64,000 bases of DNA from IMG/VR virus record IMGVR_UViG_3300033068_001747. The stretch is one strand, 5' to 3'. The notes under the pieces are model-generated. The model ran no database searches and was not told where the DNA came from. It worked only from the letters and a program-made list of their open reading frames with translations. The position numbers and the translations under genes were made by a program. Positions 1 to 23,690 of the stretch are shown here, piece after piece; position 1 is the first letter of the stretch, and each line of letters begins with the position of its first letter. The DNA is from a virus (lineage: Duplodnaviria; Caudoviricetes).

Positions 1-798
1 GGTGTTTATTTTAAAACTCAAAAAGATGCAAATAAACTTATTGAAGAATATATGTTACTTGCAAATAGATTAGTTGCAAAACTTCTATCAGATGCTAGAT
101 ACCATAATGTTTATAGAGTACATAATAGTCCTAATCTTGAAAAGTTAGAATCACTTTCTTTAGTTTGTAAAAACTTTGGTTACAGTTTAGATTTATCAAC
201 AGATACATCTAATCTTAAAAAATCTATAAATCAGTTAGTTGCTGATATAAAAGATCAACCAGAGGAAAATATGATTGAAACTTTAATCACAAGATGTATG
301 TCTAAGGCAACTTATACAACAATAAATGCAGGACACTATGGATTAGGTTTTACACACTATTCTCACTTTACATCACCAATCAGAAGATACCCTGATTTAA
401 TAACTCACAGAATTCTATTTGACTTCTTAAATAAGAAACCTAATGGAAGTCCTCAAAAAATCGAAGGTATGGCAAAATGGTGTTCTGAAAGAGAAATACT
501 AGCAGCAAAAGCTCAAAGAGACTCAATTAAATATAAACAAATTGAATACTTAGAAGATAAAATTGGACAAGTATTTGACGGAATTGTATCAGGAGTAACA
601 GACTGGGGAATGTATGTTGAACTTATTGAAAGTAAATGTGAAGGTATGGTTAGATATAATGGTAATCATAGTGTTGATGCAGAAAACTATACCGTAAACT
701 TGAAGTCCGGTGGATCAATAAGATTAGGAGACGAGGTTAAAGTAACAGTTAAGTCAGTTGACCTAGACAGAAAACAAATTGACTTTGAATTATTCTAA
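1..798 (+). CDS. rnr: Ribonuclease R (RNB + S1 domains), 5'-truncated by the window edge
   Basis: Frame is open from base 1; RNB motifs IEEYMLLAN and HYGLG..YSHFTSPIRRYPDL; C-terminal S1 domain. Confidence 0.93.
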   Translation, partial: GVYFKTQKDANKLIEEYMLLANRLVAKLLSDARYHNVYRVHNSPNLEKLESLSLVCKNFGYSLDLSTDTSNLKKSINQLVADIKDQPEENMIETLITRCMSKATYTTINAGHYGLGFTHYSHFTSPIRRYPDLITHRILFDFLNKKPNGSPQKIEGMAKWCSEREILAAKAQRDSIKYKQIEYLEDKIGQVFDGIVSGVTDWGMYVELIESKCEGMVRYNGNHSVDAENYTVNLKSGGSIRLGDEVKVTVKSVDLDRKQIDFELF

Positions 799-1211
799 TG
801 GAACCAGATTTCTTTTTAGATGTAACATTAGACGATAATGTAAAATTAGAAGATTATGATCAAGCACTTTCAACTTACAATGAATGGAAGTCAGTATATC
901 GAGAAATAAAACTAAATCTTTTACTAGAACAAGGTAAACGTATAGAATTCGATATAAACAATATATCAAAGTTTATTATATTGGATGGTAATACAGAAGA
1001 TATAATACCTGTAAGAAGTATATGCTGTACCGTAAGTGGTATGACTTTTATTCTAAATGGCAGTAAAATTGAAAAACTTACACTAAAAGCACATTGTATT
1101 GAAAATCAAAACGGTGAAATAGTTAAAGCCATATTAAAAGATGGTTTAATTTTAAAAATAAAACAAATACTTAATAAAAATTATCTTTACTTTAATATTA
1201 CTACAAACTAA
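798..1211 (+). CDS. Hypothetical protein; degenerate prohead-protease-like C-terminal half preceded by a YREIKLNLL motif
   Basis: ICCTVSGM...KAHCIENQNGEIVKAILKDGL resembles gp21-type VSHxI...kiLdTPxGxIvkaLlxxG, without the catalytic His and SSRG. Confidence 0.45.
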   Translation: MEPDFFLDVTLDDNVKLEDYDQALSTYNEWKSVYREIKLNLLLEQGKRIEFDINNISKFIILDGNTEDIIPVRSICCTVSGMTFILNGSKIEKLTLKAHCIENQNGEIVKAILKDGLILKIKQILNKNYLYFNITTN

Positions 1212-1239
1212 AAATCCTTTCATTTGAAAGGATTTTTTT
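1210..1239. terminator. Bidirectional intrinsic terminator
   Basis: AAAATCCTTTCA-tt-TGAAAGGATTTT with A/T tails between convergent genes. Confidence 0.85.
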
Positions 1240-1301
1240 ATTATAGGACATTTTAATACATAAATACTATACATAAATGTTTTTATTTCTATATATTAAA
1301 A

Positions 1302-3080
1302 TTAAAACTCAAATTCAGAGTTCCCTCCAGCTTCTGGAGCAGGAGGTTCAGGAGCGGCCTGAGGAGCGGCTTGTGCACCACCACCTGTTTGTGCACCACC
1401 TTGTGCGGCAGGGGATTCACCACCCATTTCTGGCATTCCACCACCTTGTGCTTCACCACCACCCATTTCTGATGGCATTCCACCACCTCCACCACCTTCT
1501 GATGGCATACCTGGTTCACCAGTTGCGTTAGCAGCTGCATTCATTGCATCTTTATCCCAGTATTTTTGATTCTCTGCTTTTTCTTCTGGTGTAAGTTTAA
1601 AGATATTATCCATAATCCACTCAATATGGAAATAAGGTTTTTCACCATTCATTACACCAAGCATCGTACCAACAATACCAGCTTTCTTTTCTAAGTTATT
1701 TAATTTTTTCCACTCTTCAAATACTTGATTTGAGAAGAAATCTATATCAACACCATTTGTAAAGAACTCATCTTCTGTTAGTTCAGGGAATTCTATCAAC
1801 ATTTGTAGTCTTAATGGTTTAACAATCAATTCTTTAAAGTTTGCTCTTAATCTACTAATAAAGTTGTGAAACTTAATCTCATCTCTTGTCATCTCACCTG
1901 CATCAGTGATTAAATTACCACCACCATTCTCACCTTCAAATCTCGACATTGGAATCTTAGAAGCTCTTTTCAAAGCTTTGAAAAACCAATCTAACATTGA
2001 ATCATCATTTAAGTTATGTCCTTGTGGAGAAACTAATTCCATATTTGGAGTTCCACCATCTCCTTCAGGGAACCAAACTTGTTTATTATAAGGTAAATGT
2101 TTAGAACCATTGATTGTCATTGTTCCTAAAGATTCATCCCACTCTACCTCTTCCGAATAATCATGTATCAATTGACCGATTTGTTCCTCTGCTCTTTGAC
2201 GGGACATACCCTTAATTGGAATAGTAAACTTTTGATAAACAGTAGCATTGATAATGTTAAACATTATTCTTGTTTGTTGTAAGATTTTTAATTGATTATA
2301 TGGTTTAATTAAACCCTCAATATAAGATGTTTCAGAAAATTCATTTTGAGTCGAGTAAGAAATATAAACCAATTGAGAATCTAAAAATATTCTTCTTAAT
2401 TGTGGGTCTTCAGGAAACTGAATCCATAAGTGACCAATTGCAGGTTCATATGCAGGAACTACAGTTTCTGGTCTAATTCTATTAAACCCAATAATATTCT
2501 TCTTTTTATCATCATAAATAATTTCTAATGCCAAATATCCATCAATTAAGAAGTCTTTCATCATATTCCATGCAGTAATGTTATCAGCAAAACCAAACTT
2601 GTTATAAAGTTTCTCAAAATACTCTTGATACTTCTCTTGTATTTCTTGTGAATAAGACGTTGGTAGTGCCGTAGGAGAACAGAAGTCCTTCTCATCATTA
2701 TACACTATACATTCGTCAGCGATCGTGCTTATAAAGTCTCTAATTTCATCCTTTACAGAATATTCTCTTAAAATCCTTCTTTTGTCAGCATAAGCTTTAT
2801 CTAAATAAGGAATAGACTTTCTATTTAATACAGACGCAACCGCTCGTTGCGAGAAAAAATCATACATCGAATTTCCTTTAGCAGCATATGGATCTTCATT
2901 AATACCAATACCAACTTGATTTCTTACAATCATATCGTCGAAGTTCATACCATATGATGATAGGTTTCTCAAAATTCTACTAAATAAACCTTTGTTTTCA
3001 ACTCCTGAAGAGTTCATCATTGCAAAGTTTGATCCAATATTATTTTGATTTTCTTGATTAAAGTTATTATAAGAAGCCAT
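1302..3080 (-). CDS. gp20: T4-like portal protein with Gly/Ala/Pro-rich C-terminal tail
   Basis: IADECIVY, KPYNQLKILQQ, LKRASKIPMSRF and TRDEIKFHNFISRLR match T4 gp20 motifs. Confidence 0.93.
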   Translation of the reverse strand: MASYNNFNQENQNNIGSNFAMMNSSGVENKGLFSRILRNLSSYGMNFDDMIVRNQVGIGINEDPYAAKGNSMYDFFSQRAVASVLNRKSIPYLDKAYADKRRILREYSVKDEIRDFISTIADECIVYNDEKDFCSPTALPTSYSQEIQEKYQEYFEKLYNKFGFADNITAWNMMKDFLIDGYLALEIIYDDKKKNIIGFNRIRPETVVPAYEPAIGHLWIQFPEDPQLRRIFLDSQLVYISYSTQNEFSETSYIEGLIKPYNQLKILQQTRIMFNIINATVYQKFTIPIKGMSRQRAEEQIGQLIHDYSEEVEWDESLGTMTINGSKHLPYNKQVWFPEGDGGTPNMELVSPQGHNLNDDSMLDWFFKALKRASKIPMSRFEGENGGGNLITDAGEMTRDEIKFHNFISRLRANFKELIVKPLRLQMLIEFPELTEDEFFTNGVDIDFFSNQVFEEWKKLNNLEKKAGIVGTMLGVMNGEKPYFHIEWIMDNIFKLTPEEKAENQKYWDKDAMNAAANATGEPGMPSEGGGGGGMPSEMGGGEAQGGGMPEMGGESPAAQGGAQTGGGAQAAPQAAPEPPAPEAGGNSEFEF

Positions 3081-3105
3081 GTATTAAATTAATTTTAAAT
3101 TTATG

Positions 3106-3115
3106 TATATATTAA
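3106..3115 (-). promoter_or_regulatory. Putative late promoter TTAATATATA upstream of portal
   Basis: Same motif recurs upstream of more than 20 structural or cargo genes. Confidence 0.7.
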
Positions 3116-3133
3116 ATTTTACGTTTTCCTATT

Positions 3134-3829: not shown

Positions 3830-3845
3830 AAGAGAAATATTTTTA

Positions 3846-3860: not shown

Positions 3861-4388
3861 ATGATAAATTCAAAACCAAATAATAAAAACTATAATCAAG
3901 GGAACTATATCCCTGTGAACAAGGACAAAGTAATGAAACTTAATACCAATGGTGGTGTTTACTACAGAAGTTCTTGGGAGAAAAGAATAATGACTTGGTT
4001 AGATAATAAGTCAGATATTTTAATGTGGGGAGCAGAATGTTTAAAAATCCCATATCAAATGACACATTTTGATAATGGTGATATGAGAGTTAAAGAACAT
4101 TGTTATTATCCAGATTTCTATTATGAAATGCAACTTCCTGATGGAACTAGAAAAAGAGTTGTTGTAGAGGTTAAACCAATGAAAGAATATCAAATGGTAA
4201 TCGATTTAAAGGAAGGTAAAATGAATGTACCTACAAATGGGTTAAAGAAGTTAAAAAACTTCGAGTATGACCTTAAAATGGCTTATAAGAATAAGAATAA
4301 ATGGGAAACTATGATTGCTTGGTGTAACAAAAAAGGTTATGAGTTTATTATAATAACCGAACAACACCTAAAAAAGTTTGGAATATAA
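3861..4388 (+). CDS. gp4: Head completion nuclease (T4 gp4 / TnsA-N-like PD-(D/E)xK)
   Basis: YRSSWE, IPY, YYPDF, VEVKP, KW..A-like and F.IITE motifs. Confidence 0.88.
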   Translation: MINSKPNNKNYNQGNYIPVNKDKVMKLNTNGGVYYRSSWEKRIMTWLDNKSDILMWGAECLKIPYQMTHFDNGDMRVKEHCYYPDFYYEMQLPDGTRKRVVVEVKPMKEYQMVIDLKEGKMNVPTNGLKKLKNFEYDLKMAYKNKNKWETMIAWCNKKGYEFIIITEQHLKKFGI

Positions 4389-5020: not shown

Positions 5021-5152
5021 CTAAAAATTAAATAAGTTTTTAATCTTTTTCTTTCTATATTGTTTTGGAAAAATTGAGATTGTAGTGGCCGAACTAAAGC
5101 CAGGATCAGAAACTATATCTAGACTATATAGAGTGTAATCCATTTCCATCAT
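5021..5152 (-). CDS. 43-aa ORF not in the track: prohead-protease-like peptide plus RKKKIKNL tag
   Basis: Manual translation MMEMDYTLYSLDIVSDPGFSSATTISIFPKQYRKKKIKNLFNF; overlaps the 3' end of the gp55-like gene. Confidence 0.55.
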   Translation of the reverse strand: MMEMDYTLYSLDIVSDPGFSSATTISIFPKQYRKKKIKNLFNF

Positions 5153-5489
5153 TTGCACTATTTATTGAAATAAGTTTAATTTGATGTTCATTATCACCTT
5201 TCTTTTTATAAAGATCATTCCAACCTCTTGCCAAACCTCTTTTGAAAATTTCTGTGAAGTAAGCAAACGCATTAATTGACTTATCTTCGTTGAAGTTATA
5301 CCAGTTTTGGAACATATCCAACAATCCGCTTTGGTAGCAGTCTAACTTATCATCATTAGACCAGTATCTCATTTTCTTTATTGTTTTTTTCGCTAGTAAT
5401 TCTAGCATTTTCTCCGCATTTCTCGTTAATCTTCCCTGTGCTTTACTTACGATTATCTCGATATAAAGTTCTTTATTATTTAAGTACAT
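5124..5489 (-). CDS. gp55: T4 gp55-like late-transcription sigma factor (very compact)
   Basis: YLNNKEL N-terminus and NFNEDKSINAFAYFTEI motif; alternative start at 5498. Confidence 0.8.
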   Translation of the reverse strand: MYLNNKELYIEIIVSKAQGRLTRNAEKMLELLAKKTIKKMRYWSNDDKLDCYQSGLLDMFQNWYNFNEDKSINAFAYFTEIFKRGLARGWNDLYKKKGDNEHQIKLISINSANDGNGLHSI

Positions 5490-5570
5490 ATATAGCATTT
5501 ATTTTTTTCAGAGTAAAACTCTGTAATGCTATTCATTCATGTTATATATATCTAGTTAAAAAAGTTTAAA

Positions 5571-5621: not shown

Positions 5622-6905
5622 TTATCCTTTAATTCTTTCTTTGTATTGTAATTCTTTAACTGCTTGTAATTCAGTGTTAAGATTAGAGCTTCTTTTCTCT
5701 AAATTTTTAAGAGCAGTTGTTAAAACTTCTGATTCACCAATCATTTTTAATGAACCTTTGATTTTTTCAATATTAAATTGAACATCTTCTAATTTAAGAG
5801 AGATTTCTCTTTCTTTATCTTCAAGTTTTCTCTTAACAATGATCTCTTTGTTTAATTTATTTTCAAAGAAATAAGTTAAGTCATAGTTTAATTCATTTCT
5901 TACTTCATTTACTAATTCTAAAGCAGATTCATATTTAAAGAATGAGTTACCATATCTTTCATCACATCTGTAAACAAATGTATTGTTTTTGTAATTGAAA
6001 GCAAATACTTCTAAATAAGGATTTACTAAGTTATTAACTCTTTTTACAACATCTAACTCAACAAATTTATCTAAGTTTTTAGAAGTTTCTAATAAAACTG
6101 GATAAAAGTTTTTGTTAACGATAGGAATAATTGGAGAGTTGAATAAACTTTCTAATGTAGTTTCTTCATTTAACTCATCGTCATTGATGTATAAACCACC
6201 TTTTTTACCAACTGCTAAACCAATTGTCAAGTATTCAGAAACTCTAAAGTTAATTCTACTTTCAGTAACTGTCGAATATTTCATAGCAGTTTCTAAAGTT
6301 CTTAAACTTTTTAAAGTTTCAGCATCTTTAACATGATTTTCTAATAAAGTTTTTTCAATTGTATTTTCAGTTAATAAGAACCAAGAATCTCTAACTAAAG
6401 CCACGTGACCTTCTTCAACTTGCTCAACTATTGTAAAAATAGATTCAGCACTTCCACCACTTAAAAGATTAGATCTTTTTTCTGGAGATTTTGTTAAATT
6501 GTGCACAAATACTTTAATTTCTGGAACCCAGTCATAAACAGCCAATTCATTAAGAATTTTTGACATTCTATCTTGATCTGTTTCAAGATTAATAGTTTGT
6601 AATAATACGTTTATAGGTTGTCTGTAAAGTTCTCCTTGATTTCTAGTATTAAGAACTCCATATAAATTTTTCAATTCATATAATAATTCAAAAGCAGCCA
6701 TGTCATCATTAAGACTCTCTAATAATAACTTCACACTCTTATCATAAGTATAAGGTTTTAATCTTTCATTAAGAGAAGTAATTATAGTTTTCTCTGAATG
6801 TTGATTACAAGCATTCATATGTCCTTCTACAATTGTAGATATTTCTTCTTGGTCAAGAGAAAGATCCTTTTTGAAGTTAAACAATTCAAGTTTAAGATTC
6901 TTCAT
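5622..6905 (-). CDS. Late protein with C-terminal coiled coil (possible head/core protein)
   Basis: 427-aa ORF behind an extended late-promoter motif; function not recognised. Confidence 0.6.
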   Translation of the reverse strand: MKNLKLELFNFKKDLSLDQEEISTIVEGHMNACNQHSEKTIITSLNERLKPYTYDKSVKLLLESLNDDMAAFELLYELKNLYGVLNTRNQGELYRQPINVLLQTINLETDQDRMSKILNELAVYDWVPEIKVFVHNLTKSPEKRSNLLSGGSAESIFTIVEQVEEGHVALVRDSWFLLTENTIEKTLLENHVKDAETLKSLRTLETAMKYSTVTESRINFRVSEYLTIGLAVGKKGGLYINDDELNEETTLESLFNSPIIPIVNKNFYPVLLETSKNLDKFVELDVVKRVNNLVNPYLEVFAFNYKNNTFVYRCDERYGNSFFKYESALELVNEVRNELNYDLTYFFENKLNKEIIVKRKLEDKEREISLKLEDVQFNIEKIKGSLKMIGESEVLTTALKNLEKRSSNLNTELQAVKELQYKERIKG

Positions 6906-7902: not shown

Positions 7903-8457
7903 ATGAATTATATTAAACTATTTGAAGACTTTACTTTTTCCGATTTATACGATAAGAATAAATGGGTTGAACTTACTATGGAAGATAGAAGCAAACTTAA
8001 AAAAGAAATATGGGAGATTGTCGACCTAGCTTATAAGCCACTTGGTGGACACGTTAGAATCTCATCACCAGATGCAGTTGTAAATGATCCTGATTTAACT
8101 TTTTGGACGGCAGTTGATATAGATAAAGATCCTAATGTAGATGTTGTAATATTTTCTAGAGAATCACACGGACATAAAATATCTGGTTGGGGACATGATG
8201 GTACTAAAGAAGCCAGAAAAGAACTAATGAAACAACTGATTTCTTTACTACATAGAGAAGGTTTTTGGATAGAAGTGTCTGGAAGACCTGCAGAAATACT
8301 AATAGGTGCAGATTGCAGATACTGTGATAAACAAATTGTAAGTAAAGTTTTTCCACACTCTGAAATAAACTGGATTGGAAATGGTGTTTATACAAGAACT
8401 TTACCGGATGATACAATAACTGAAGAAGAATACTTAATTGGACGTCCAAGAGTATAA
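7903..8457 (+). CDS. Hypothetical protein with N-terminal MNYIKLFEDF tag (putative head cargo)
   Basis: Shared N-terminal motif; late motif 5 nt upstream. Confidence 0.7.
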   Translation: MNYIKLFEDFTFSDLYDKNKWVELTMEDRSKLKKEIWEIVDLAYKPLGGHVRISSPDAVVNDPDLTFWTAVDIDKDPNVDVVIFSRESHGHKISGWGHDGTKEARKELMKQLISLLHREGFWIEVSGRPAEILIGADCRYCDKQIVSKVFPHSEINWIGNGVYTRTLPDDTITEEEYLIGRPRV

Positions 8458-8504: not shown

Positions 8505-9476
8505 ATGTCAGTAAATAAATTATTATTATGGGAAAAATGGCGTCCGAAAACTATTGACGACATTATATTACTTCCAAGAATTAGAAAAGAATTAGAAAAT
8601 GGTGTAAATCAACACTATATATTCCACGGTCACTACGGTAGTGGTAAAACAAGTTTAGCAAGAATTTTAATTGGTAGATACTCAAAAGAAACTCCTTACT
8701 TGGAATTAAACTGTTCTATGGACACATCTATTGATGTACTTAGAACTGAAATTGATAACTTCTGTAAGTTTACTCCAATGATGGACACTAATTCAGATAT
8801 TAAATATGTTTTTTTAGATGAGTTTGAAAGAGTTTCTACAAACTTTCAAGACGCATTTAAAGCTTTCATAGAAAGATATAATAGAAATGTTCGATTTATC
8901 ATTACAACAAACCATATAAACAAAATATCTGACGGATTAAAATCAAGAATTAAACAAATAGGGTTTGATTGTCAAAATGTTGAAGAAGAAAAGTTTTTAA
9001 AACAGGAAATCTATAAAAAGATAATCAATGAAATTCTTCCTAAAGAAGATGCAGAAATACCAAAAGAAGATTTAATCAACATTATTACTAAAAAGTTTCC
9101 AGACTTTCGTTCTACATTAGTTGAAGTACAAAGTTATTTAGATACTGGTGCGATAAGTGATGGAACAGGAAATGTTTCTACAAAAGTGAAGTTAGAACTT
9201 TATAATACTTTATATGAAGATTTAGATTTTGAAAAAACTTATCACTTTTTAATGTCAAACTTTGGTGCAGAAAAAATTGATGTAATGATTAAATTACTAG
9301 GAAAACCCTTTATTGATTGGTGTATCACAGAGAAAAGAGAAAGTGTCAATAAACTATTTGAAACAGCTTATATAATTGCAGATTACTCTTCTAAATTAGA
9401 AGGTTCAACTGATCCACTTATATTAGGAATAACAATTATAGGAAAATTTAGAGATATATTAAAAAACCCAGTCTAA
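8505..9476 (+). CDS. gp44: Clamp loader AAA+ subunit (T4 gp44 / RFC small subunit)
   Basis: WEKWRPKTIDD, Walker A GHYGSGKT, Walker B LDEFE, FIITTN, LKSR, FPDFR. Confidence 0.92.
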   Translation: MSVNKLLLWEKWRPKTIDDIILLPRIRKELENGVNQHYIFHGHYGSGKTSLARILIGRYSKETPYLELNCSMDTSIDVLRTEIDNFCKFTPMMDTNSDIKYVFLDEFERVSTNFQDAFKAFIERYNRNVRFIITTNHINKISDGLKSRIKQIGFDCQNVEEEKFLKQEIYKKIINEILPKEDAEIPKEDLINIITKKFPDFRSTLVEVQSYLDTGAISDGTGNVSTKVKLELYNTLYEDLDFEKTYHFLMSNFGAEKIDVMIKLLGKPFIDWCITEKRESVNKLFETAYIIADYSSKLEGSTDPLILGITIIGKFRDILKNPV

Positions 9477-9504: not shown

Positions 9505-9882
9505 ATGGCAAATTTTAACTTTATCGACTTTTATATCTGTTATCCAGGACACCCAATGTTTAGAAATGCTGAACTTATCGAGGATGATGTAGTAAAAGTT
9601 ATCGTTCAAAAATATGAAATGATTATCTTTACAAATAAAGGTGAAGTTTTAGGAGAACCTAATTTTGGTGCAGACCTAACTTTACTACTACACGAAACAA
9701 GATTATCAGCAGAATCAGTTGAAGGTGATATAAGAGCTCAAATAGCAGATTATATACCTGAAATAGATCAAATTGGTTATGAATTATCAGTAGAGTTTTT
9801 TGATGATCCTGAGAGACATCAAGAATATATGGTAATCAACTTTACAATTGCAGACTATGAAGTTTATGCAACCGTTAGCTAA
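9505..9882 (+). CDS. Baseplate wedge protein, gp25-like
   Basis: IFTNKGEVLGEPNFGADL..LL.E gp25-family signature. Confidence 0.82.
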   Translation: MANFNFIDFYICYPGHPMFRNAELIEDDVVKVIVQKYEMIIFTNKGEVLGEPNFGADLTLLLHETRLSAESVEGDIRAQIADYIPEIDQIGYELSVEFFDDPERHQEYMVINFTIADYEVYATVS

Positions 9883-10324
9883 GTCTATAAGAATTGTGTT
9901 GCCAATAGTTTTCACCATATTCAACAAATATCTCTTCACCTGCTTCTATATCTCTTGTTGCAACAAGAACAACGTCATCACCATCCATTGAGATTATACA
10001 GTTGTTTTTAAATCCAGTATCAGAACCTTCTGCATCATTAGCGTATTTGGCAAAACAATCAGTTTGTTTACAATCTAATATGTCACCATTTGGTAAATTC
10101 ATAAAGTAATCATCATCTCCTGATTCAGTTCTAGATTTAATTTCTTCATCAGAAATAATTTCTCCTTTAAATACAGATATAACTTCATCTTTCTCAATAT
10201 CAATTGCTGTAAATAAACCTCTACCAGAATTAGGTATCTGTGAAGTTTCTACATATAAGTAGTCTGACTCGTCAGAGTCAATTCTATCAAAATCAAAATT
10301 TTCAAAAGTTTTTAAATATCTCAT
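9875..10324 (-). CDS. SET-domain protein-lysine methyltransferase with MRYLKTFENF tag
   Basis: SGRGLFT, AKYAND, VATRDIEAGEEIFVEYG..YW. Confidence 0.88.
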   Translation of the reverse strand: MRYLKTFENFDFDRIDSDESDYLYVETSQIPNSGRGLFTAIDIEKDEVISVFKGEIISDEEIKSRTESGDDDYFMNLPNGDILDCKQTDCFAKYANDAEGSDTGFKNNCIISMDGDDVVLVATRDIEAGEEIFVEYGENYWQHNSYRLS

Positions 10325-10952: not shown

Positions 10953-12742
10953 TAGTCTTCGTCTTCTATTGCTAGTTGTCCTTGTTTTCTTTTTATAACG
11001 TTTATCATAACTGTGATACCGTTATTTATATTTCCAAAGTAGTTTCTCTTATCACTAAATGCCGAATATAAATAAACAGTATTATTATAATAACTACCTG
11101 GTCTCATTCTATCAAAGAAGTTACTTAAACTACCTAAACCGGTTCTCTCTGATCTAAACATCTGTCTTATTGAATTGATCTCTTGTTGTAAGAATTCAAC
11201 ATCTGATAATGTTTCAACAGTAATGGATGCAATATAACGACTAATTTCCAAAGATAATCTATCTAAATTATCTAGTATCTTAATCTCTTTATTTCTCCAT
11301 TCTTCAGTAGATTCATCTTCAATTTTATCTTTAAATTGTTTAAGAAGTTTATTAGTATGTTCGTTTGTTTTTATAGACCAATCTAATATACTTTTATACT
11401 TTTCATTGATATACTCAACATCATTTTTGAAATCATAATTGTTTTTCAATGCTTCTAATGCAGTAGGAGTAAGTCCTTGTTCTAATAACTTAGCATCTTC
11501 TCTTTCTGCAGTTTTAATCTTCTTAATAACTTTAAAAATATTTGTAGCTATATTTCCTAAACCACTACTGATCGTATCACTAGCAGATTGATTTAAGAAA
11601 TAAGCCGCATTTCTACCTAATAATCTAGCAGCCATTCTATTAAATTTAGAAATATCATCTAATTCACCTTTTAATTTGAAACCTAGTGCAATCTTATCAA
11701 AGTATCTTTTAATATTAGCTTTCTTAATATCTTCATCAGACATAAGTGCTAGAGCACCTGATTTCAACTCAGTTCTATCAGAAATAATCTCACTTTTCTT
11801 TTTCGCTGGTGCAAAATTCATTAGTTTATTAAAATCTAATATAATTGCAAAATTTGCGTCTTTCACAGAAGAGTTTATCTGAACTGGCCTAATACGGAAA
11901 TTATCTAAGTCAAATGAAGTATTATATCCATAAGGGTCTAAACCACCAACATTTGCTTTTGGTTTTAATAAATTTATATTATTAACTCTCGAAGGTATAA
12001 GTGTCCAGGAATTAGTACCAATCGATCTCCAATCACTAGTCCAAGGAGAAGGATATCTTCCACGTCTATTTTGAATAACAAACATTTTTGTCTCATTATA
12101 TCTAGTTTCTTTAAAAACATAACCTACCACACCAGATTCAATTGTATATGTTTCACCATTCCATCTTCTTTCAAGCATATCAAATGAGATTATATCACCA
12201 GTATCTAACACATTTTTTATTTGTGTCTTAGGAACTCTTCTAACTACATCATAATCATCAACATTTGGTGAAAATGCAGTAGTATTAGCAGCAGATGTTT
12301 CTCTATAAACACCATCTACCGCAGTGGTTGCAATAAATTTACCTTCTGAATCAAACCAAAATTTAATCATTGATAAACTAGACTTTTTAGGTTTGATTCC
12401 AGTACCTTTACAAGTACCACAATCAACAACTCTAAATCCTCTACCCCAAGGTCTTCTTACCTTACCTTTATCACATTTTTCACCAGCTATAAACTCACCA
12501 GTTGCATCACAAGGCTCATCTTCAACGACAACATTATTAAATCTTAATGCTCTATTAAATGGTAAGTATGTAAATAAATCATCACTTAGTTTAGATTCAG
12601 GTACATCAAACTTATTACATATCTTTTTTAAAGAGTTTAAAAAGTTACTTTTATCAGATTTTGATTTTATGTGGTTTAAAGTTGCATTTAATGTTCTTGC
12701 ATCAAATGCTTCAAATAATTTTATATATTTTAAATTTTTCAT
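10952..12742 (-). CDS. Large protein with DnaJ-like Zn finger and MKNLKYIKLFEAF tag
   Basis: CDATG...CDKG...CGTCKGTG; shared N-terminal motif. Confidence 0.7.
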   Translation of the reverse strand: MKNLKYIKLFEAFDARTLNATLNHIKSKSDKSNFLNSLKKICNKFDVPESKLSDDLFTYLPFNRALRFNNVVVEDEPCDATGEFIAGEKCDKGKVRRPWGRGFRVVDCGTCKGTGIKPKKSSLSMIKFWFDSEGKFIATTAVDGVYRETSAANTTAFSPNVDDYDVVRRVPKTQIKNVLDTGDIISFDMLERRWNGETYTIESGVVGYVFKETRYNETKMFVIQNRRGRYPSPWTSDWRSIGTNSWTLIPSRVNNINLLKPKANVGGLDPYGYNTSFDLDNFRIRPVQINSSVKDANFAIILDFNKLMNFAPAKKKSEIISDRTELKSGALALMSDEDIKKANIKRYFDKIALGFKLKGELDDISKFNRMAARLLGRNAAYFLNQSASDTISSGLGNIATNIFKVIKKIKTAEREDAKLLEQGLTPTALEALKNNYDFKNDVEYINEKYKSILDWSIKTNEHTNKLLKQFKDKIEDESTEEWRNKEIKILDNLDRLSLEISRYIASITVETLSDVEFLQQEINSIRQMFRSERTGLGSLSNFFDRMRPGSYYNNTVYLYSAFSDKRNYFGNINNGITVMINVIKRKQGQLAIEDED

Positions 12743-14442
12743 ATTACTGGTCCTACTATTTCTATTTTTACTCCTTTAGATCTTAATTCACCTAAGATTG
12801 ATTTAGATTCTTTTGTTGCTAAATCACCAGAGATTACTAATTTTTTCAAGTTCTCAGGTACAATTGTTTTTAAATCTTCTACAGAATCTAAAGTATATAT
12901 TACTTGAAGTTCTTCTAATGCTTTAAAATCAGAGAAGTCAAATGAACCAACATTATCACAACTAACAATTTGTAATTTTGTAATACCTGGGTTAGAAGCA
13001 TTTATATCTTGTAAAACGGTATTAGACAATCTACATTTATCAAATGCAATATTTGTTGTTTTGATTCTATCAAAATCCTTTAAAGTATGAATTTCAATAA
13101 ACTTAAATTTAATCCAATCTAAAGTAAGATTGATTGTCAATAATGATTCTGGAATCTCAGTTGTTTCAATTATCAACTCTTTAATTTTCGCATTTGGATC
13201 TACTCTAACATTTGTCCAGTTTCCAATTTGACTTAAATATAAAGTTTTTATATTTTTACCAATCATTCTTCCTGTAGTTAAAGATAATCTATCTTGATAT
13301 GGTGCATCTAAACTATCATTAAAGTCAATATCAGGAGTATATAAATATCTGTCATTTCTATCCGCATTAGAAGCATTACCACTATATTTAGTAACCATTT
13401 CTTGAATCTTATTCTGCATTCTATCTGGATAAGCTCTATCAAAATATAATTTTTTAGGTCCTGTTCCATCAAATGTCTCAATATTTCTAATAATCATTCT
13501 CGATAAAGGTAAATGTTCAGAAATCTTCTCATCTTCCCAGAAGATAGGAGTTTCAAAAATTAAGAAAGCAGGTATACTATTTGGATCAAATACATTACCT
13601 AAAACTTTACCACTATAACCACCACTATATAAATGTTGACATGAAGAGTAAAACTTAGAAATTGACATATTTAAAATATCTTGTGGATTGTGAGTAATCT
13701 TCAAGAAAATATCTTTATTGAAAATCTCAAAGTCTAATTTATATTGTGGATTCTCATTAGTAGATGCAAAGTTTATAAAATTTGATAAATTTCTATTATC
13801 AGAGAATAGTGTTGATGATGCAATTTTATCTGATTCAGACCAACCTTCTAAATTAGCGTCAGTACATTTATCAACTAAATCATTATAATCCGAAATAAAT
13901 GTGTTTATATTAATTAAGTTGTTACTAAATATCAAATCTCCAGCTTTCTTCTCTGTTCTAATCATATTACCTTGTTCATCTCTGATAGGTCTATTATTAG
14001 CATCCTTAGAAATAACTGAAGTTGCCATAGTATCCGGAATAGATAATTTTCTAAAAACTGAACTAAACATAGCCAATATTTGATCTAACTTAGGTTTTCT
14101 AATATCAAAACTTTCAAAAATTCTAGTATAAGTATCTTTATTCTCTCTAAAAAGTTCAACATTTATTGATTGATTTAAAACATTTCCAAATTGTTCTGGT
14201 AAACTAGAGAACAACTCAAATAACTCAACCATATTAGTTTGACAAAAAACACCAAGTACCTCATTCTTATCTTCTTCAGATAACTTCCAACTTCCTTGTA
14301 CAATTTTATCAGTTGGGGTAACCTCTTCATAGTCAAGGTATTTCTCGCCCCATTTACTTGTTACTGCCTTTGCTTGTCTAGGTAAGATAACATCACGTAG
14401 CTTTGCTTCTAAAAAAAGATTTCTTGTTTTAATCCATTTCAT
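12739..14442 (-). CDS. Large protein with LRR-like C-terminus and MKWIKTRNLFLEA tag
   Basis: Repeated (I/L)xxLxI/L segments (IKTLYL, IKELII, ITKLQI, LEELQV, LKKLVI). Confidence 0.65.
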   Translation of the reverse strand: MKWIKTRNLFLEAKLRDVILPRQAKAVTSKWGEKYLDYEEVTPTDKIVQGSWKLSEEDKNEVLGVFCQTNMVELFELFSSLPEQFGNVLNQSINVELFRENKDTYTRIFESFDIRKPKLDQILAMFSSVFRKLSIPDTMATSVISKDANNRPIRDEQGNMIRTEKKAGDLIFSNNLININTFISDYNDLVDKCTDANLEGWSESDKIASSTLFSDNRNLSNFINFASTNENPQYKLDFEIFNKDIFLKITHNPQDILNMSISKFYSSCQHLYSGGYSGKVLGNVFDPNSIPAFLIFETPIFWEDEKISEHLPLSRMIIRNIETFDGTGPKKLYFDRAYPDRMQNKIQEMVTKYSGNASNADRNDRYLYTPDIDFNDSLDAPYQDRLSLTTGRMIGKNIKTLYLSQIGNWTNVRVDPNAKIKELIIETTEIPESLLTINLTLDWIKFKFIEIHTLKDFDRIKTTNIAFDKCRLSNTVLQDINASNPGITKLQIVSCDNVGSFDFSDFKALEELQVIYTLDSVEDLKTIVPENLKKLVISGDLATKESKSILGELRSKGVKIEIVGPVI

Positions 14443-14852: not shown

Positions 14853-15362
14853 ATGTCAGGAATTTTAATGTTACAAATTGCAGTATTTGTACTATCAATC
14901 TGTCTTCTAGGATCTTTAATCGGAAATGTCACTCTTTACTCTAAATGTGAACAAATAAGAGAGGAAAAAGATAAGGTGTCAAAAGAAAAAGATAAGATTA
15001 AAAAAGAAAAAGAAAAAGCAGATGCTTTCAAAAAGGATTTGATTGCAATTGAACCTGGTCACAAAGTTATTTATCCAGATTATGGACTTACTTGGACCGA
15101 CACTGATAAAGATGGTAATAAATTGAAACCAGAAGCTTTTAAAGTAACTTATGAGTTAGAAGTATTAGAAGTTACTGAGACTAGAATTAAAGTTAAAGCA
15201 GTTGATTTTACATCAATGGACTCAATTGGAAGAGATACTTCAAAAAAATCAGGTATTATCTCATTTATGAAAGATAAATGGGTAGAGAAACATCAGGTAC
15301 AACTTATAGTTGATGATTCTGTTAAAAGAGACCTTAAACTAAGACAATTAGGAATAGAATAA
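14853..15362 (+). CDS. Membrane-anchored protein with coiled coil and C-terminal KRDLKLRQLGI tag
   Basis: N-terminal TM helix, K/E-rich coil, terminal motif. Confidence 0.65.
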   Translation: MSGILMLQIAVFVLSICLLGSLIGNVTLYSKCEQIREEKDKVSKEKDKIKKEKEKADAFKKDLIAIEPGHKVIYPDYGLTWTDTDKDGNKLKPEAFKVTYELEVLEVTETRIKVKAVDFTSMDSIGRDTSKKSGIISFMKDKWVEKHQVQLIVDDSVKRDLKLRQLGIE

Positions 15363-15390
15363 AAAAGTTGAGAATTATCTCGACTTTTTT
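15361..15390. terminator. Bidirectional terminator
   Basis: AAAAAAGTTGAGA/TCTCGACTTTTTT. Confidence 0.75.
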
Positions 15391-15898
15391 ATTTTAAATT
15401 TATTACTCTAATCTTAGACTTATCCAAATAAAACTCTTTTAGATTTCTATTTAAAATCAATTTAGATGATTTTTGACCAATTACAATTTTATTCTCAAAT
15501 TCATCCGATAAGTAAACATTGTACCCTAAATCTTTCATATGAGTATCATATATTTGATTAGAGGTGATTACCCAATTATCTGATGTAAGATTATGTATTT
15601 CTTTTTTTAGTTGTTTATTCGACTTTAAATTAAGTAATTTAGTAATTACATTTTTTGGATAAAAATCAATATCAATTGATTCACAATCTAAAGTTTGTTC
15701 AAATAAAAATTTGTTAGTATCCTGCAACGAGGTTACTAACAAATCCTGTAGGTGGAAGAATTCTTCTTTTGTAGAAACTTTAATTTTCCCATTTTCTTTA
15801 AAAGTCTCAGAAATAGTAAATTGAGCAGGATTTTCATCTACCCAAATTACTTCATTAAAGTAAGATAATAATAAATATTCTATCGAGTCTGTGTCCAT
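15389..15898 (-). CDS. Hypothetical protein; C-terminus weakly resembles major capsid (gp23) A-domain
   Basis: NWVITS...YNVYLSDEFENKIVIGQK versus gp23-type N(F/W)IxxS...yxVYxD....yxxvGyK. Confidence 0.4.
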   Translation of the reverse strand: MDTDSIEYLLLSYFNEVIWVDENPAQFTISETFKENGKIKVSTKEEFFHLQDLLVTSLQDTNKFLFEQTLDCESIDIDFYPKNVITKLLNLKSNKQLKKEIHNLTSDNWVITSNQIYDTHMKDLGYNVYLSDEFENKIVIGQKSSKLILNRNLKEFYLDKSKIRVINLK

Positions 15899-16467
15899 GT
15901 ATCCTTTTTTATATCTCTATTTATTTTACTACAGAGTGGTTGTAAGTTAGTATAATGTGTTAATTTCACTATATCTTCTTCTGTTTTAGCAGAAGATAAT
16001 GGTATTTTATGATCAATATCCCAACCATAATTAAATTCACCATTATACTTACCTTGGTTATTCCAATTCATCCAAGATTCAAATTTACTCTCTAAGTAAA
16101 CTTTTAATTCTTCAAAAGAACAACCTATTAGGTCCTTTGTTTTTGAGTTCTTCTTTATCTCTTTACTTAAAAAGATATTTTTAATAGAACTTCTACTTAA
16201 AATCTGTAACCTAAATAATATATCATCTTTATATCTTCTATTCAAATACTCCGTATGTTTTTTCATAAGATATTCTTTATTATTGATATAATAAATTTTC
16301 TTTACTTGTGTTTGTTTTTCTTTATTTTCTAATTTGTATTTTTTATTATAATCAAATCTTTTATTGTTATAACAAGTTTTACATTCATTTTTTAATCCAT
16401 CTTTATTTGTAGATTTATAAAAATTACTATAATCAAATTCTATGTTACAAACTTTACATATTTTCAT
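15880..16467 (-). CDS. HNH homing endonuclease with N-terminal Zn ribbon
   Basis: CKVC...CKTC; DIDHKIPLS...HYTNLQPL..KIN; alternative start at 16476. Confidence 0.85.
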   Translation of the reverse strand: MKICKVCNIEFDYSNFYKSTNKDGLKNECKTCYNNKRFDYNKKYKLENKEKQTQVKKIYYINNKEYLMKKHTEYLNRRYKDDILFRLQILSRSSIKNIFLSKEIKKNSKTKDLIGCSFEELKVYLESKFESWMNWNNQGKYNGEFNYGWDIDHKIPLSSAKTEEDIVKLTHYTNLQPLCSKINRDIKKDTWTQTR

Positions 16468-16506
16468 AAGAAACATTTTTATTTATATATATAAAAATGT
16501 TTCTTA
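16467..16506 (-). promoter_or_regulatory. 16-bp perfect hairpin covering the HNH translation start, with late-promoter motif in the loop
   Basis: TAAGAAACATTTTTAT-N8-ATAAAAATGTTTCTTA. Confidence 0.75.
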
Positions 16507-19796: not shown

Positions 19797-19961
19797 ATGA
19801 AAGTTATGAAAACTAAAAAAACTAAACAAGAAGTTGCGATTTTGAGAGAAAAGTTCTTAGTTGAATACTGTAAAAAAATGGGTTGGAATCATAATGAGTT
19901 ATCAACCAATCAAATGTTATTCATTACACAACAAAAAGGATATATATCTCCTTTAAACTAA
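19797..19961 (+). CDS. 54-aa hypothetical protein (not in track)
   Basis: MKVMKTKKTKQEVAILREKFLVEYCKKMGWNHNELSTNQMLFITQQKGYISPLN; fills the gap behind a TATATA motif. Confidence 0.55.
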   Translation: MKVMKTKKTKQEVAILREKFLVEYCKKMGWNHNELSTNQMLFITQQKGYISPLN

Positions 19962-20002
19962 TCAATAAAATATAATATAATTAGAAAAATAATTATTTAT
20001 TA

Positions 20003-20761
20003 ATGAATACACATTCTTTTACCTATATCATTGGATATAGACACACTCCTGATAGATTTCACAATCTTAAAAAAGTTTTAGATTGGATTAATGGATTTAC
20101 AAATGTTGATGTTATACTTATAGAACAAGATACACACTCAAAAATATCTCATCTTCCTTTAAAAGCCAGACATATCTTCCTTAAATCTGATAAACCTTAT
20201 AATAAATCTTGGGCATTTAATATAGCTACTAAAGAAGCAAAATCAGATATTATAGTTTTTGCAGATTCAGATTTAATAATGAATCCTAATGAATTCATCG
20301 AAGCAGTTAAATTGCTTGAACAATACGAAATGGTTAACCCATATTGTTCAGTTGTTGATTTACAACCAAATGAGTCAAATTTACAATTAGATCAAATGTT
20401 ACTTATTGATAGACCAGGACGTGGAGAAACGGATCACCAAAAAGTTCCTTTATGTGGTGGAATCTGTATATTTAGAAAATCCGCTATACTAAGAATAGGT
20501 GGTTGGAATGAATCTTTTATGGGATGGGGTGCTGAAGATGACTTTCAATCTCATAAAGTTAAAAACTTTTTAAGTTGGACAGAGTGTAAAAACAAATGTT
20601 ATCATTTATACCATAGTAGAGAAACACCGAATATGTTATATTACCAAAGAAATCTTCAATTACTTAACCAATTAGTAGCATTATCAAAAGAAGACTTAGT
20701 TAAAACAGTAAATGCAAGTTTACAAAAAAATGGAATGAAAAATCTATATGACACTTTCTAA
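20003..20761 (+). CDS. Glycosyltransferase (GT2 / GT7-C galactosyltransferase-like)
   Basis: NKSWAFN, FADSD (DxD) and GGWNESFMGWGAEDD. Confidence 0.88.
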   Translation: MNTHSFTYIIGYRHTPDRFHNLKKVLDWINGFTNVDVILIEQDTHSKISHLPLKARHIFLKSDKPYNKSWAFNIATKEAKSDIIVFADSDLIMNPNEFIEAVKLLEQYEMVNPYCSVVDLQPNESNLQLDQMLLIDRPGRGETDHQKVPLCGGICIFRKSAILRIGGWNESFMGWGAEDDFQSHKVKNFLSWTECKNKCYHLYHSRETPNMLYYQRNLQLLNQLVALSKEDLVKTVNASLQKNGMKNLYDTF

Positions 20762-21503
20762 AAAAGACGAAATTAAATACTTATGTAATTTTTCAGAAAA
20801 ATCACATAACGGCTCAGTGGCAAGTATCAGTTACTTAGACTATTTAGAAGAAAATACACTTCAAGAACAACTAAAAGCTAAAGCGACAAATCGTGAATTA
20901 GCAATTGATATAGTTACTGGAGAAAAAGAAGAATCTGCCTGGGATAGTAGAGCAGATCTACCAAAAATTGATGAAACTACAATACCTGTTATGGGTTTAA
21001 AAATATTTTCTATGAATGTACAAGCAAAAACGTTTACTTCATACGAAGATTTACACACAGAGATAATAACATATATAGAAAACTTTACTCAGGGACAACC
21101 AGTTTTAAATAACGGAATAGCATCATTTGATTTAACACTAACAAATGATCCAAGTAAAACAGATAAAGAAAACTTTGACTATAATAATAGAAGAGTTATA
21201 TCAAAATTAGTTAGTTGTGGTAATTATATTGCAGTAACCAATAGACGTGGTCCAGGAACTACTGTATTAGTACATCCAGATACTTGTTTAAAATATGATA
21301 TTAGTGCAATTATAAATAATTCAAACTATACCTTAGTTAAATCGGATTTAATTACAAAAGACAAGTTTATTGTTTTAAGAGCAGATCTAAGTGGTACAAA
21401 TGAAGATGGACTCTTTGTCATAAAATCACTTGATGAAGACAAATACTTTATGAAAGAAACACCAAATTTAAAGAATAAAATTATGTGGTTCTATGTAAAA
21501 TAA
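20748..21503 (+). CDS. Protein containing a major-capsid (gp23)-like segment and an NRELAIDIV motif
   Basis: ISKLVSCGNYIAVTNRRGPGTTVLVHP resembles gp23-type ANxIAxxTRRGxGNxIIxS. Confidence 0.5.
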   Translation: MTLSKKDEIKYLCNFSEKSHNGSVASISYLDYLEENTLQEQLKAKATNRELAIDIVTGEKEESAWDSRADLPKIDETTIPVMGLKIFSMNVQAKTFTSYEDLHTEIITYIENFTQGQPVLNNGIASFDLTLTNDPSKTDKENFDYNNRRVISKLVSCGNYIAVTNRRGPGTTVLVHPDTCLKYDISAIINNSNYTLVKSDLITKDKFIVLRADLSGTNEDGLFVIKSLDEDKYFMKETPNLKNKIMWFYVK

Positions 21504-21504
21504 G

Positions 21505-21530
21505 AAAAACCTCTCAATGAGAGGTTTTTT
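21505..21530. terminator. Bidirectional terminator
   Basis: AAAAACCTCTCA/TGAGAGGTTTTT. Confidence 0.85.
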
Positions 21531-22068: not shown

Positions 22069-22078
22069 AAATTATATA

Positions 22079-22237
22079 TTATTTTTCGGATTCTGTAATA
22101 AGAAATATACTTACTATATCTTTTTTTGGAAGTCTTTTAACTTCTGAAAAGTACTCAATTGCCTGTTCTATTGAATAACACTGAGTTTTAATGATAATCT
22201 CTTTAGATTTTTTTGTTCTTAGGTAAAATGTTTTCAT
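22079..22237 (-). CDS. 52-aa hypothetical protein (not in track)
   Basis: MKTFYLRTKKSKEIIIKTQCYSIEQAIEYFSEVKRLPKKDIVSIFLITESEK; late motif 4 nt upstream. Confidence 0.6.
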   Translation of the reverse strand: MKTFYLRTKKSKEIIIKTQCYSIEQAIEYFSEVKRLPKKDIVSIFLITESEK

Positions 22238-22253
22238 GTCTTATATATTATTT

Positions 22254-23480
22254 TTAGTTTATGTTAAATTCTCTTTTTAGTTCTATTTCAAAAATTTGAT
22301 TAACTTCATCACGATATTTTTTAGGAATAACAATACTATCGTGTATGGTTATCATTTTAATCTCTGGGTAAAATTTCATCACTTTCTTTATAACAGTATT
22401 GAAAATTAAATTTGACTCTGCTTTTTGTAAATCATATGCCAAAACTCGGTAATCTCCATTTTCTTTTTTATACGTTTTTATAAATTGATGTATTGTTGGA
22501 AATAACTTTTTAAATTGTTTATCTACTTTACTTGAACCAATATTTCTACCAAAAAGAACTTTATAAGTCATTTCTTTAACTTTCTTCTTATCATTTTCAC
22601 CAAGTTGACTCATAACATACTGATAGTAAGTACCTGTAGTTGTTAGATGTCTAAATAATTCAAACTCTTTTTGATCAACCATATTAGTATCTATTAGTTT
22701 AGTTAGGAAAAGAGGTTGACTATTTTGTATATCAATTTCACAAGTTTCCTCATTATCTATTAGTAAACAATTCTTTCTAATAAACGATTTCAGAATAGTA
22801 TAATTTGTATGCATTCTTCCGTAAGAATCAAAATGATAAAATATGTGTTTATCATTGATACAATCAACAGAGTAAATATTTCTGTTATAAATATCTATAT
22901 CTTGATGTTTTAAAGAGTCAAGGAAGAATATAGCTCTATCATATTCAATTTTAACACTAAATAAGTCAGAAACCAATTTCTCTTTTACTAAGGGGTCAAT
23001 TAAATTATGCTTAGAAGTATCATCAATATGAATCATATCAATAAACTTATGTTTATACTTCTTTAATAGAACTCTATCGAAGTTCTTATATCTTTTTATC
23101 TTCTCAATAAATATATTCTCATCCAACGCATAAATTCGTGATGTAACACCATTTTGATAATTTGTTTTAAGAACTAAAATACTATTACTCACTAGATAAT
23201 TAATATAATAGTTATAAAGATAACCATATTTATCTTTTAATACGGTTGCGTTTAAAGCAAATCTATTTTCTTTTTTAAAATAATATTTTAAAATAAGATT
23301 ATGAACTATATCAATTAGATAGTTTGTTTTAAGTTTAACACCGTTAAATTCCAATGTTTTTTGAGTTGATATTCCATACAAACATTCTGGTAGAAATTGA
23401 AGTGAAAATAATTTATCATCTATACGTTTGGCAACGTTTTCCGAAGTATCTAAGTTTATAATTGTGTTTTCGATATACAT
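22254..23480 (-). CDS. Minimal family-A-polymerase-like protein (palm motifs A/B/C, no exonuclease domains)
   Basis: YGRMHT, EIDIQNSQP (A), KKVKEMTYKVLFG (B), LQKAES, TIHDS (C). Confidence 0.65.
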   Translation of the reverse strand: MYIENTIINLDTSENVAKRIDDKLFSLQFLPECLYGISTQKTLEFNGVKLKTNYLIDIVHNLILKYYFKKENRFALNATVLKDKYGYLYNYYINYLVSNSILVLKTNYQNGVTSRIYALDENIFIEKIKRYKNFDRVLLKKYKHKFIDMIHIDDTSKHNLIDPLVKEKLVSDLFSVKIEYDRAIFFLDSLKHQDIDIYNRNIYSVDCINDKHIFYHFDSYGRMHTNYTILKSFIRKNCLLIDNEETCEIDIQNSQPLFLTKLIDTNMVDQKEFELFRHLTTTGTYYQYVMSQLGENDKKKVKEMTYKVLFGRNIGSSKVDKQFKKLFPTIHQFIKTYKKENGDYRVLAYDLQKAESNLIFNTVIKKVMKFYPEIKMITIHDSIVIPKKYRDEVNQIFEIELKREFNIN

Positions 23481-23496
23481 AGTTTTTATATCAAAA

Positions 23497-23690
23497 TTAG
23501 CAAGTATGTTTCGTTAAATTTTTAATTTTTTTCCTTCTATTCTCTCTTCTAATTTGAACTTTAAGTTCTCCCGCTAAAATCTTTTCCAATTCCGCTTCAA
23601 CATCAATACTATGAAATGAATTAAGACTTTAATAAGTTCTGTACTCCACTCAGCTTTGATGGTACGTGTTTCTGTTTTTATTTCTTTCAT
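23497..23690 (-). pseudogene. Frameshifted mini-gene encoding a major capsid (gp23) fragment plus RRKKIKNL tag
   Basis: Adding one base near 23626 gives MKEIKTETRTIKAEWSTELIKDLNSFHSIDVEAELEKILAGELKVQIRRENRRKKIKNLTKHTC. Confidence 0.7.

Follow-up and report, generated by a model that had tools for sequence, protein, structure and literature searches.

A lineage-wide family of tagged mini-genes that copy conserved segments of hallmark proteins in giant phages

In this work, we analyzed the first 64 kb (hereafter the window) of a 132,473-bp viral contig from IMG/VR (record IMGVR_UViG_3300033068_001747) and found that two of its small open reading frames (ORFs), 23497-23690 and 5021-5152, belong to a conserved, lineage-wide family of modular mini-genes that encode 35-90 amino acids (aa). 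Each mini-gene has two modules, both under purifying selection: a bait, in which 15-45 aa reproduce the best-conserved strand or helix of some hallmark protein, and an address, which is a C-terminal tag. A first-pass annotation of the window had grouped these two ORFs with 798-1211, 15389-15898, and 20748-21503 as a single system of head-protein fragments. The five instead comprise two tagged mini-genes, two larger untagged paralogues, and one unrelated ORF. Resemblance to part of a head protein held for four of them, and in profile and structure comparisons with gp23 and gp21 it was supported for 23497-23690 and 20748-21503, moderate for 798-1211, and absent for 15389-15898 (hhalign, 1.8%). 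Searches of Pfam and PHROG with all five of these ORFs gave no significant matches. What stood of the original idea is that non-canonical proteins under selection copy parts of the capsid protein and the protease (dN/dS, the ratio of non-synonymous to synonymous change, is well below 1, at about 0.2-0.3, and 57 of 80 loci have an intact capsid-derived mini-gene). A literature search found no published description of the tag or the mini-genes.

The capsid-derived mini-gene, 23497-23690, had been noted for its resemblance to a segment of gp23, and this was confirmed. In the window it consists of two short ORFs in different frames, which one restored base joins. The resulting 64-aa product (with X at the break) matches T4 gp23 residues 259-305 in a PDB search (E = 4e-5), and the match crosses the break. 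By analogy with HK97, this segment would correspond to the E-loop return strand and the spine helix. All 28 aligned intact orthologues match the Pfam family Gp23 (PF07068; best E = 2.9e-15, 51.7 bits with a cut-off of 24.4), with the match confined to positions 131-183 of the 376 in the hidden Markov model (HMM); a complete HK97 fold with N-arm, E-loop, and P and A domains is not present. The profile of the mini-gene family matches T4 gp23 with E = 7e-8 and gp24 with E = 0.02. Neither this product nor that of 20748-21503 is the capsid protein proper. An origin from a split or intron-interrupted capsid gene was rejected, as the capsid gene is uninterrupted (567-572 aa) in the relatives.

For conservation, we drew 80 syntenic loci from IMG/VR with the upstream neighbor 23712-25037 as the anchor. 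An intact ORF of 58-76 aa was found at the mini-gene position in 57 loci; the gene is truncated in one and missing from the other 22, which are the more distant ones. Intact genes were therefore found in 57 of the 58 loci that have the gene, and the window copy is the only one divided between two frames. With respect to its nearest relatives, this copy has lost a single nucleotide (an A; GAT to G-T) between 23627 and 23626 and 27 nt at its 5' (N-terminal) end; either it became a pseudogene recently or the assembly contains an error. In most relatives, the ATG of the mini-gene overlaps the stop codon of the upstream neighbor. Pairwise dN/dS values are 0.15-0.54 for the mini-gene and 0.02-0.16 for the flanking gene, which is not the pattern of neutral decay.

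The capsid bait is more canonical than the phage's own capsid protein, because its profile scores 36 bits on T4 gp23 and 11.9 bits on the resident-type capsid protein (hhalign, 23%), and because its best matches in cultured phages are the capsid proteins of Flavobacterium and Microcystis T4-like phages. A weak match to the capsid mini-gene profile (15 bits) was also found in the N-terminal extension of a polyphosphate kinase 2 (PPK2)-like protein of the related phage LR745206.1 (143761-145014); this extension may be a fused copy of the mini-gene.

The second mini-gene, 5021-5152, had been described as protease-like, and the comparison with the protease agreed. In its stretch Y-S-L-D-I-V-S-D-P-G-F-S-S-A-T, 10 of 15 residues are common with the invariant T-Y-D-I-V-A-D-P-G-F-A-S-A at the end of the protease domain in the protease-scaffold protein of the lineage. 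This is a local match of 15 aa to the prohead protease in which the DIVxDPGF stretch alone is kept, and no family-level match to PF03420 or to the lineage protease was found. The gene overlaps the 3' end of the gp55-like sigma factor gene (5124-5498) and appears to be translationally coupled to it. A degenerate DNA pattern for the tag, searched in IMG/VR, identified eight places: six orthologues of 5021-5152 beside the gp55-like gene (four distinct sequences), one tail-fibre-like mini-ORF, and one apparent chance match. The orthologues are intact, and both D-[IL]-V-x-D-P-G-F and R-K-K-K-I-K-N-L-F-N-F are invariant in five orthologues. The rest of the mini-gene has 62-90% identity and dN/dS of 0.18-0.97, compared with 95-99% and 0.01-0.04 for the adjoining gp55-like gene. 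Fusion of the two products by frameshifting was not supported, as in all relatives the gp55-like gene keeps a stop codon of its own behind a conserved C-terminus. A complex prediction for the protease domain and the mini-protein scored 0.01 and was uninformative either way.

The closest relatives in annotated collections are two uncultured huge phages, LR745206.1 (634,780 bp) and LR756502.1 (642,428 bp), which have approximately 78% nucleotide identity to the contig over the portal region. In LR745206.1, 15 tiny ORFs (35-83 aa) terminate in the basic, aromatic tag, and at least seven of these are recognizable copies. The sources include motif A (83154-83393) and motif B of the family-B DNA polymerase (PolB), a tail-fibre-like motif, two different halves of the capsid spine region, the C-terminal strands of the capsid protein (E = 3e-5 to that protein), and the scaffold repeat (three to four copies; E = 9e-15). 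A protease-derived mini-ORF (189488-189649) carries a tag variant with a final Leu. The contig itself has a third mini-gene, a copy of PolB motif A located outside the window (72093-72335). Head-derived baits are the most numerous class; the set is not head-specific as first thought, since PolB and tail-fibre motifs are copied too. Within the baits, the conserved residues coincide exactly with the conserved positions of the parent families. Compared with their neighbors, the mini-genes accumulate non-synonymous changes several- to about 20-fold faster, and they are gained and lost. The parent PolB of LR745206.1 is itself divided into two genes approximately 100 kb apart, one with the exonuclease and motif A (232803-234344) and the other with motifs B and C (130568-131992). 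Separate from both is a mini palm-like ORF of 216 aa (597241-597891), whose motifs are degenerate and which has the general tag at its end.

The family tag is basic and aromatic, with the consensus R-K-x-K-I-x-N-[IL]-F and the wider form hydrophobic-R-[KR]-x-K-I-x-[NK]-[IL]-[FYW]. In the six-frame translation of the 132-kb contig, R[RK]KKIKNL occurs twice, namely at the C-termini of 23497-23690 (codons at approximately 23515-23538) and 5021-5152. The peptide handle that the first-pass annotation saw on most of its five ORFs is thus real for the two smallest, and 798-1211 and 20748-21503 have no C-terminal tag. In LR745206.1, this basic subclass is found on ORFs of 35-83 aa only. It belongs to a general C-terminal helix motif, hydrophobic-R-[DE]-x-K-[IL]-x-x-[IL]-[LG] (more widely, hydrophobic-R-[DENK]-x-[KRQ]-[IL]-x-x-[ILV]-hydrophobic), that is carried by 8-13% of ORFs, so the handle is not private to the proposed set and looks like a general address. 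In 26 of the 201 ORFs, the final 22 residues include the loose form, compared with 0.4% of internal windows. Strict matches are 14 C-terminal versus 2 internal in the contig (P = 2e-14), and 83 versus 13 in LR745206.1 (P = 1e-77). Of these two internal contig matches, one falls in 798-1211, where it forms an invariant helix. The motif is often located 5-10 residues before the C-terminus and sometimes internally. In a Pfam search with ten proteins that have the general tag, the motif was covered by no family.

At the DNA level, the copies share approximately 22 nt of tag codons and nothing beyond, with no similarity downstream of the tag. The codons vary synonymously (Arg as AGA, AGG, CGG, CGA, or CGT; Ile as ATT, ATA, or ATC; Lys and Asn codons vary too). 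These patterns indicate that the tag is a peptide signal rather than a DNA signal. A shared mobile element behind the tags was rejected, as only those 22 nt are common to the copies. An origin of the tag in the C-terminus of the scaffold or capsid protein was not seen. A different, N-terminal sequence was also observed: at least seven ORFs in the window between 5622 and 19158 start with M-K/N-[YHWN]-[IL]-K-x-[FY]-[ED]-x-F, a pattern similar to the T4 capsid-targeting sequence (CTS). Their starts include 6905 (-), 7903 (+), 10324 (-), 10952 (-), 12742 (-), and the 19158 region. This set includes a SET-domain protein (9875-10324), and none of its members ends with the C-terminal motif.

Table 1. 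Mini-genes, larger conserved ORFs, and neighboring genes in the window (E values are from the family searches named).
Position	Strand	Feature	Remarks
23497-23690	-	Capsid-derived mini-gene	Putative gp23 E-loop return strand and spine helix, then tag ending R-R-K-K-I-K-N-L
5021-5152	-	Protease-derived mini-gene, 43 aa	D-I-V-S-D-P-G-F motif and tag Y-R-K-K-K-I-K-N-L-F-N-F
20748-21503	+	Conserved capsid-like protein, 251 aa	Residues 139-225 homologous to capsid residues 412-517
798-1211	+	Conserved protein, 137 aa	gp21/assemblin-like fold (moderately supported), no catalytic residues
15389-15898	-	Conserved protein, 169 aa	Not part of the phenomenon
14853-15362	+	ORF of 169 aa	Ends K-R-D-L-K-L-R-Q-L-G-I-E; example of the general (acidic) motif form
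23712-25037	-	Conserved protein, 441 aa	Upstream neighbor of the capsid-derived mini-gene
22254-23480	-	Conserved protein, 408 aa	Downstream neighbor of the capsid-derived mini-gene
20003-20761	+	Family 2 glycosyltransferase (GT2)	Context; stop overlaps start of 20748-21503
1302-3080	-	T4-type portal protein gp20	PF07230, E = 2.6e-59; context, head module adjacent
5124-5498	-	gp55-like late sigma factor	phrog_234, E = 7e-8; context
8505-9476		gp44-like clamp loader	

The two larger proteins are ordinary diverged paralogues outside the tagged set, and they are probably accessory head proteins for head assembly or decoration, by analogy with T4 gp68 and gp24. For 20748-21503, a profile of 76 sequences matches the lineage capsid protein with E = 2.6e-14 (hhalign, 98.3%), and a shallow profile gave a weak collinear match (56%, E = 1e-4). 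The homologous part probably runs to the C-terminal end of the 251-aa protein itself, and its capsid counterpart (residues 412-517) would be part of the A-domain and P-domain. The family consensus is R-K-I-I-x-K-I-x-x-x-S-N-x-I-A-x-x-G-R-x-G-P-A, and the capsid counterpart reads R-K-L-I-T-K-I-A-H-A-S-N-Y-I-A-T-E-G-R-V-G-P-A. The gp23-like segment predicted for this ORF is therefore capsid-derived, but the ORF is not a small or degenerate copy: it has 67 close homologues, and its family of about 250 aa comprises 120 clusters at 50% identity, nearly all of 230-270 aa. No relative of its N-terminal half was detected, and PDB profile searches with the ORF gave no capsid match. The pairing with the GT2 gene and the gene order that includes the capsid mini-gene are also found in one distant relative, in which the homologue of 20748-21503 has approximately 34% identity.

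The protein encoded by 798-1211 had been predicted to be a protease fold that lacks catalytic residues. A gp21-protease-like fold is moderately supported by its AlphaFold2 (AF2) model (predicted local distance difference test, pLDDT, 87), for which the T4 gp21 protease (5jbl_A) was the best of 48,161 chains (Z = 6.4; root-mean-square deviation 3.3 A over 109 of 137 residues). The model also resembles the assemblins of varicella-zoster virus (Z = 4.2), human cytomegalovirus (Z = 2.9), and Kaposi's sarcoma-associated herpesvirus (Z = 2.8). In Foldseek, gp21 was the top match by probability (0.6) with E = 0.15. Among 27 orthologues, no invariant His or Ser was found for the catalytic His/Ser/His. 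At the sequence level, the protease assignment found no counterpart, with no Pfam or PHROG match and an hhalign value of 2.8% to the lineage protease. The protein has 91 homologues, and the tag core lies inside it as the invariant sequence Y-R-E-I-K-L-N-L-L-L. Its gene lies between the portal gene and, in the relatives, the protease-scaffold gene, a position at which T4 has gp67 and gp68 (PMC9026906). One orthologue, P0070, gained a C-terminal extension ending H-R-D-K-Q-L-E-K-I-I-P-K-K, which shows the general tag added onto an existing protein. A gene for an RNase II/R-type exoribonuclease with RNB and S1 domains (1-798) abuts 798-1211 from upstream, and the two are paired in LR745206.1 as well. 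For 15389-15898, the weak likeness to the gp23 A-domain that had been suggested was not reproduced, as no similarity to the capsid protein was found (hhalign, 1.8%).

The five ORFs were first described as located away from any capsid operon. They are in fact beside the head module rather than far from it, because the portal gene is in the window and both relatives have a protease-scaffold fusion (699-727 aa) just beyond the point that matches the left end of the contig. The full capsid protein gene (567-572 aa; Pfam Gp23, E = 1e-26 to 1e-28) is likewise just past the contig start in both. IMG/VR labels the record as a "provirus" with about 60% completeness. Judging from its content and relatives, the contig is a fragment that covers about one fifth of a megaphage genome of roughly 0.6 Mb. 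The G+C content of the window is approximately 28%, and an alternative genetic code was rejected since table 11 already gives near-complete coding. Other products encoded in the window are a weak gp15-like protein, a thymidylate synthase, and the SET-domain protein mentioned above. A TnsA-like PD-(D/E)XK endonuclease (3861-4388) and an HNH/endonuclease VII-like gene (15880-16476) are found among the core genes and are probably mobile nucleases. The sequence TTAATATATA is a candidate late promoter in place of T4's TATAAATA. It was found 20-40 nt upstream of the portal gene, 5622-6905, the gp15-like gene, 7903-8457, and the 12739-14442 operon (window positions 3115, 6946, 7869, 7888, 14480, and 1299), with 25 copies in the contig.

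We tentatively propose that the tagged mini-proteins are competitive mimics addressed by their tag, with a role in conflict or regulation; we regard this as possible rather than probable. The bait would mimic its parent segment and take the site that normally receives it, either on the partners of the parent or on folding or assembling subunits, and the tag would dock the mini-protein on one common, putative reader. The most likely use would be interference in conflict, that is, poisoning the hallmark proteins of co-infecting related phages; host-sensor decoying or self-regulation is possible. Poisoning of rivals is favored because the capsid bait is far closer to canonical T4-type gp23 than the resident capsid protein is. 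The faster but constrained evolution and the patchy presence of the mini-genes also favor a role in conflict. Several observations weigh on the other side. The scaffold, protease, and PolB motif A baits are closest to the phage's own proteins, which fits targets in self or kin better than distant competitors. The capsid mini-gene of the window is frameshifted, which makes it dispensable in this phage if the break is not an artefact of assembly. Host-sensor decoys are expected to show the same evolutionary pattern. Moreover, the AF2 model of 20748-21503 (24 close homologues) failed (pLDDT 37), and the gp21-like fold of 798-1211 rests on a Z score below 8, a level at which the likeness may be only a shared arrangement. 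A bolder form of the idea, which we consider very improbable, is that the mini-proteins are natural bait-plus-address adaptors. The bait would co-fold or co-assemble with a hallmark protein of a rival phage or of the phage itself, and the tag would hand the complex to a hub such as the phage's own ClpC-like unfoldase. This would amount to programmable, peptide-guided removal or sequestration, retargeted by swapping a snippet of 20-40 aa.

Competitive mimicry has to be weighed against other explanations of the same genes. Immune decoying, the use suggested by the first-pass annotation, seems distinctly unlikely to us. Baits would copy epitopes read by host sensors of the capsid, protease, polymerase, or terminase and would titrate or jam these sensors, while the tag holds them on a common platform. 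Among known defence systems, Lit and CapRel sense the capsid, and Avs senses the terminase and portal. The baits are indeed the most conserved segments of the protein classes that such systems sense, and the fast but constrained evolution and patchy presence fit immune decoying as well as inter-phage interference. However, the resident capsid protein is diverged in the copied segment, such that the decoy, and not the capsid, would be visible to a sensor that recognizes the canonical form. Sensors are unlikely to target the scaffold repeat, and peptides of 15-45 aa are unlikely to recreate the folded surfaces read by Avs-type sensors. If the mini-proteins instead served the phage's own virion, the tag would be a second capsid- or core-targeting signal and the baits would bring these small proteins into the assembling core or shell, in the manner of T4 gp67, gp68, and the internal proteins. 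The prohead core of T4 contains several small proteins (PMC9026906), 798-1211 lies at the gp67/gp68 position with the tag core inside, and head-derived baits are the most numerous. We nevertheless find this unlikely: a head offers no role for baits copied from PolB motifs A and B, other proteins of the genome already carry the CTS-like N-terminal sequence in the form M-K-[YHW]-[IL]-K-x-F-E-x-F, no conserved L/I-x-E cleavage motif is found beside the tag, and the genes are dispensable, fast-evolving, and missing from 22 of 80 loci.

Alternatively, the tag alone may matter, as a timing or turnover signal (a degron for a phage ClpC-like unfoldase) or as a hub-binding tail for a sliding clamp, with little importance of the bait sequence. 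The tag is a hydrophobic-x-x-hydrophobic-hydrophobic pattern near the C-terminus with basic residues before it, and the same pattern is found in the clamp-binding tails of T4 gp43, gp33, and gp55 and in MuA-type ClpX signals. Furthermore, the PolB of a relative ends with R-R-L-S-V-V-M-D-I-F-G-G-F-K, a sequence similar to R-K-K-S-I-N-K-I-F, one mini-gene appears to be coupled to the gp55-like gene, and a Clp-type ATPase is encoded in a relative and in the contig. Against this, a Pfam search of the contig and two full relatives found no sliding clamp of the gp45, PCNA, or beta type (PF02916, PF09116, PF02768, and PF00705), and 7903-8457, at the gp45 position, had no PDB match. The baits are not irrelevant either, given where they are conserved, and a motif that is often 5-10 residues from the C-terminus and sometimes internal would be unusual for a degron. 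On balance, we see a pure degron or clamp tail as quite improbable. The dullest possibility is non-functional debris, such as partial duplications or remnants of homing endonucleases or introns in neutral decay. Motifs of hallmark genes are classic intron and intein sites, both nuclease genes (3861-4388 and 15880-16476) are nearby, and the capsid copy of the window is frameshifted and shortened. Yet the gene is intact in nearly all loci that have it, with dN/dS well below 1. Synteny is kept down to the approximately 34% identity noted above, no DNA is common beyond the tag, and each copy starts at a codon of its own, often with coupling to the gene upstream. Debris is thus largely refuted for the family taken together and now extremely unlikely; it is an option only for the broken copy of the window.

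Several known systems share features with these mini-genes. The T4 CTS, found on the internal proteins IPI-III and Alt, is like the tag a short peptide on otherwise unrelated proteins that serves as an address for one partner. It differs in being N-terminal, about 10 aa long, cleaved after L/I-x-E, and head-specific, whereas the tag is C-terminal (sometimes internal), has no cleavage motif, and occurs on 8-13% of ORFs, including DNA polymerase fragments. The T4 proteins Srd and Srh are small early proteins that resemble segments of the host sigma-70 and sigma-32 and are thought to be mimics. Their phenotypes have been mentioned (PMC6070864). They have in common with the mini-gene products a small size and a likeness to part of a larger protein. 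However, they are single cases that copy host proteins and share no tag, while the tagged family copies the phage's own hallmark proteins. The C-terminal clamp-binding tails of gp43, gp33, and gp55 in T4 and RB69 are similar in having a hydrophobic-x-x-hydrophobic-aromatic pattern after basic residues and in addressing one hub. They differ in that no clamp gene was found here and that the approximately 100 tagged proteins in the 635-kb relative far exceed any known set of clamp clients. For the two larger proteins, the best analogies are T4 gp24, the vertex paralogue of gp23, for 20748-21503, and gp68 and gp67, small prohead-core proteins beside gp21, for 798-1211. The gp24 protein is a full-length HK97-fold paralogue of 427 aa, whereas 20748-21503 matches capsid residues 412-517 only and has an unrelated N-terminal half; 798-1211 is likened to gp68 by position alone.

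Even on the dullest reading, these results provide leads for three recurrent families of hypothetical megaphage proteins, namely, the capsid-like protein paired with a glycosyltransferase, the pseudo-protease of the head module, and the Gp23-fragment mini-gene. The presence of the general motif on about 100 proteins of a 635-kb phage implies a predicted major hub for sorting or docking. If the mimicry is true, giant phages could build specific inhibitors or decoys at the protein level in a modular fashion, from the 20-40 most conserved residues of a target and a standard address. This would represent a new class of phage device for conflict or regulation and a template for peptide inhibitors of phage assembly and replication.

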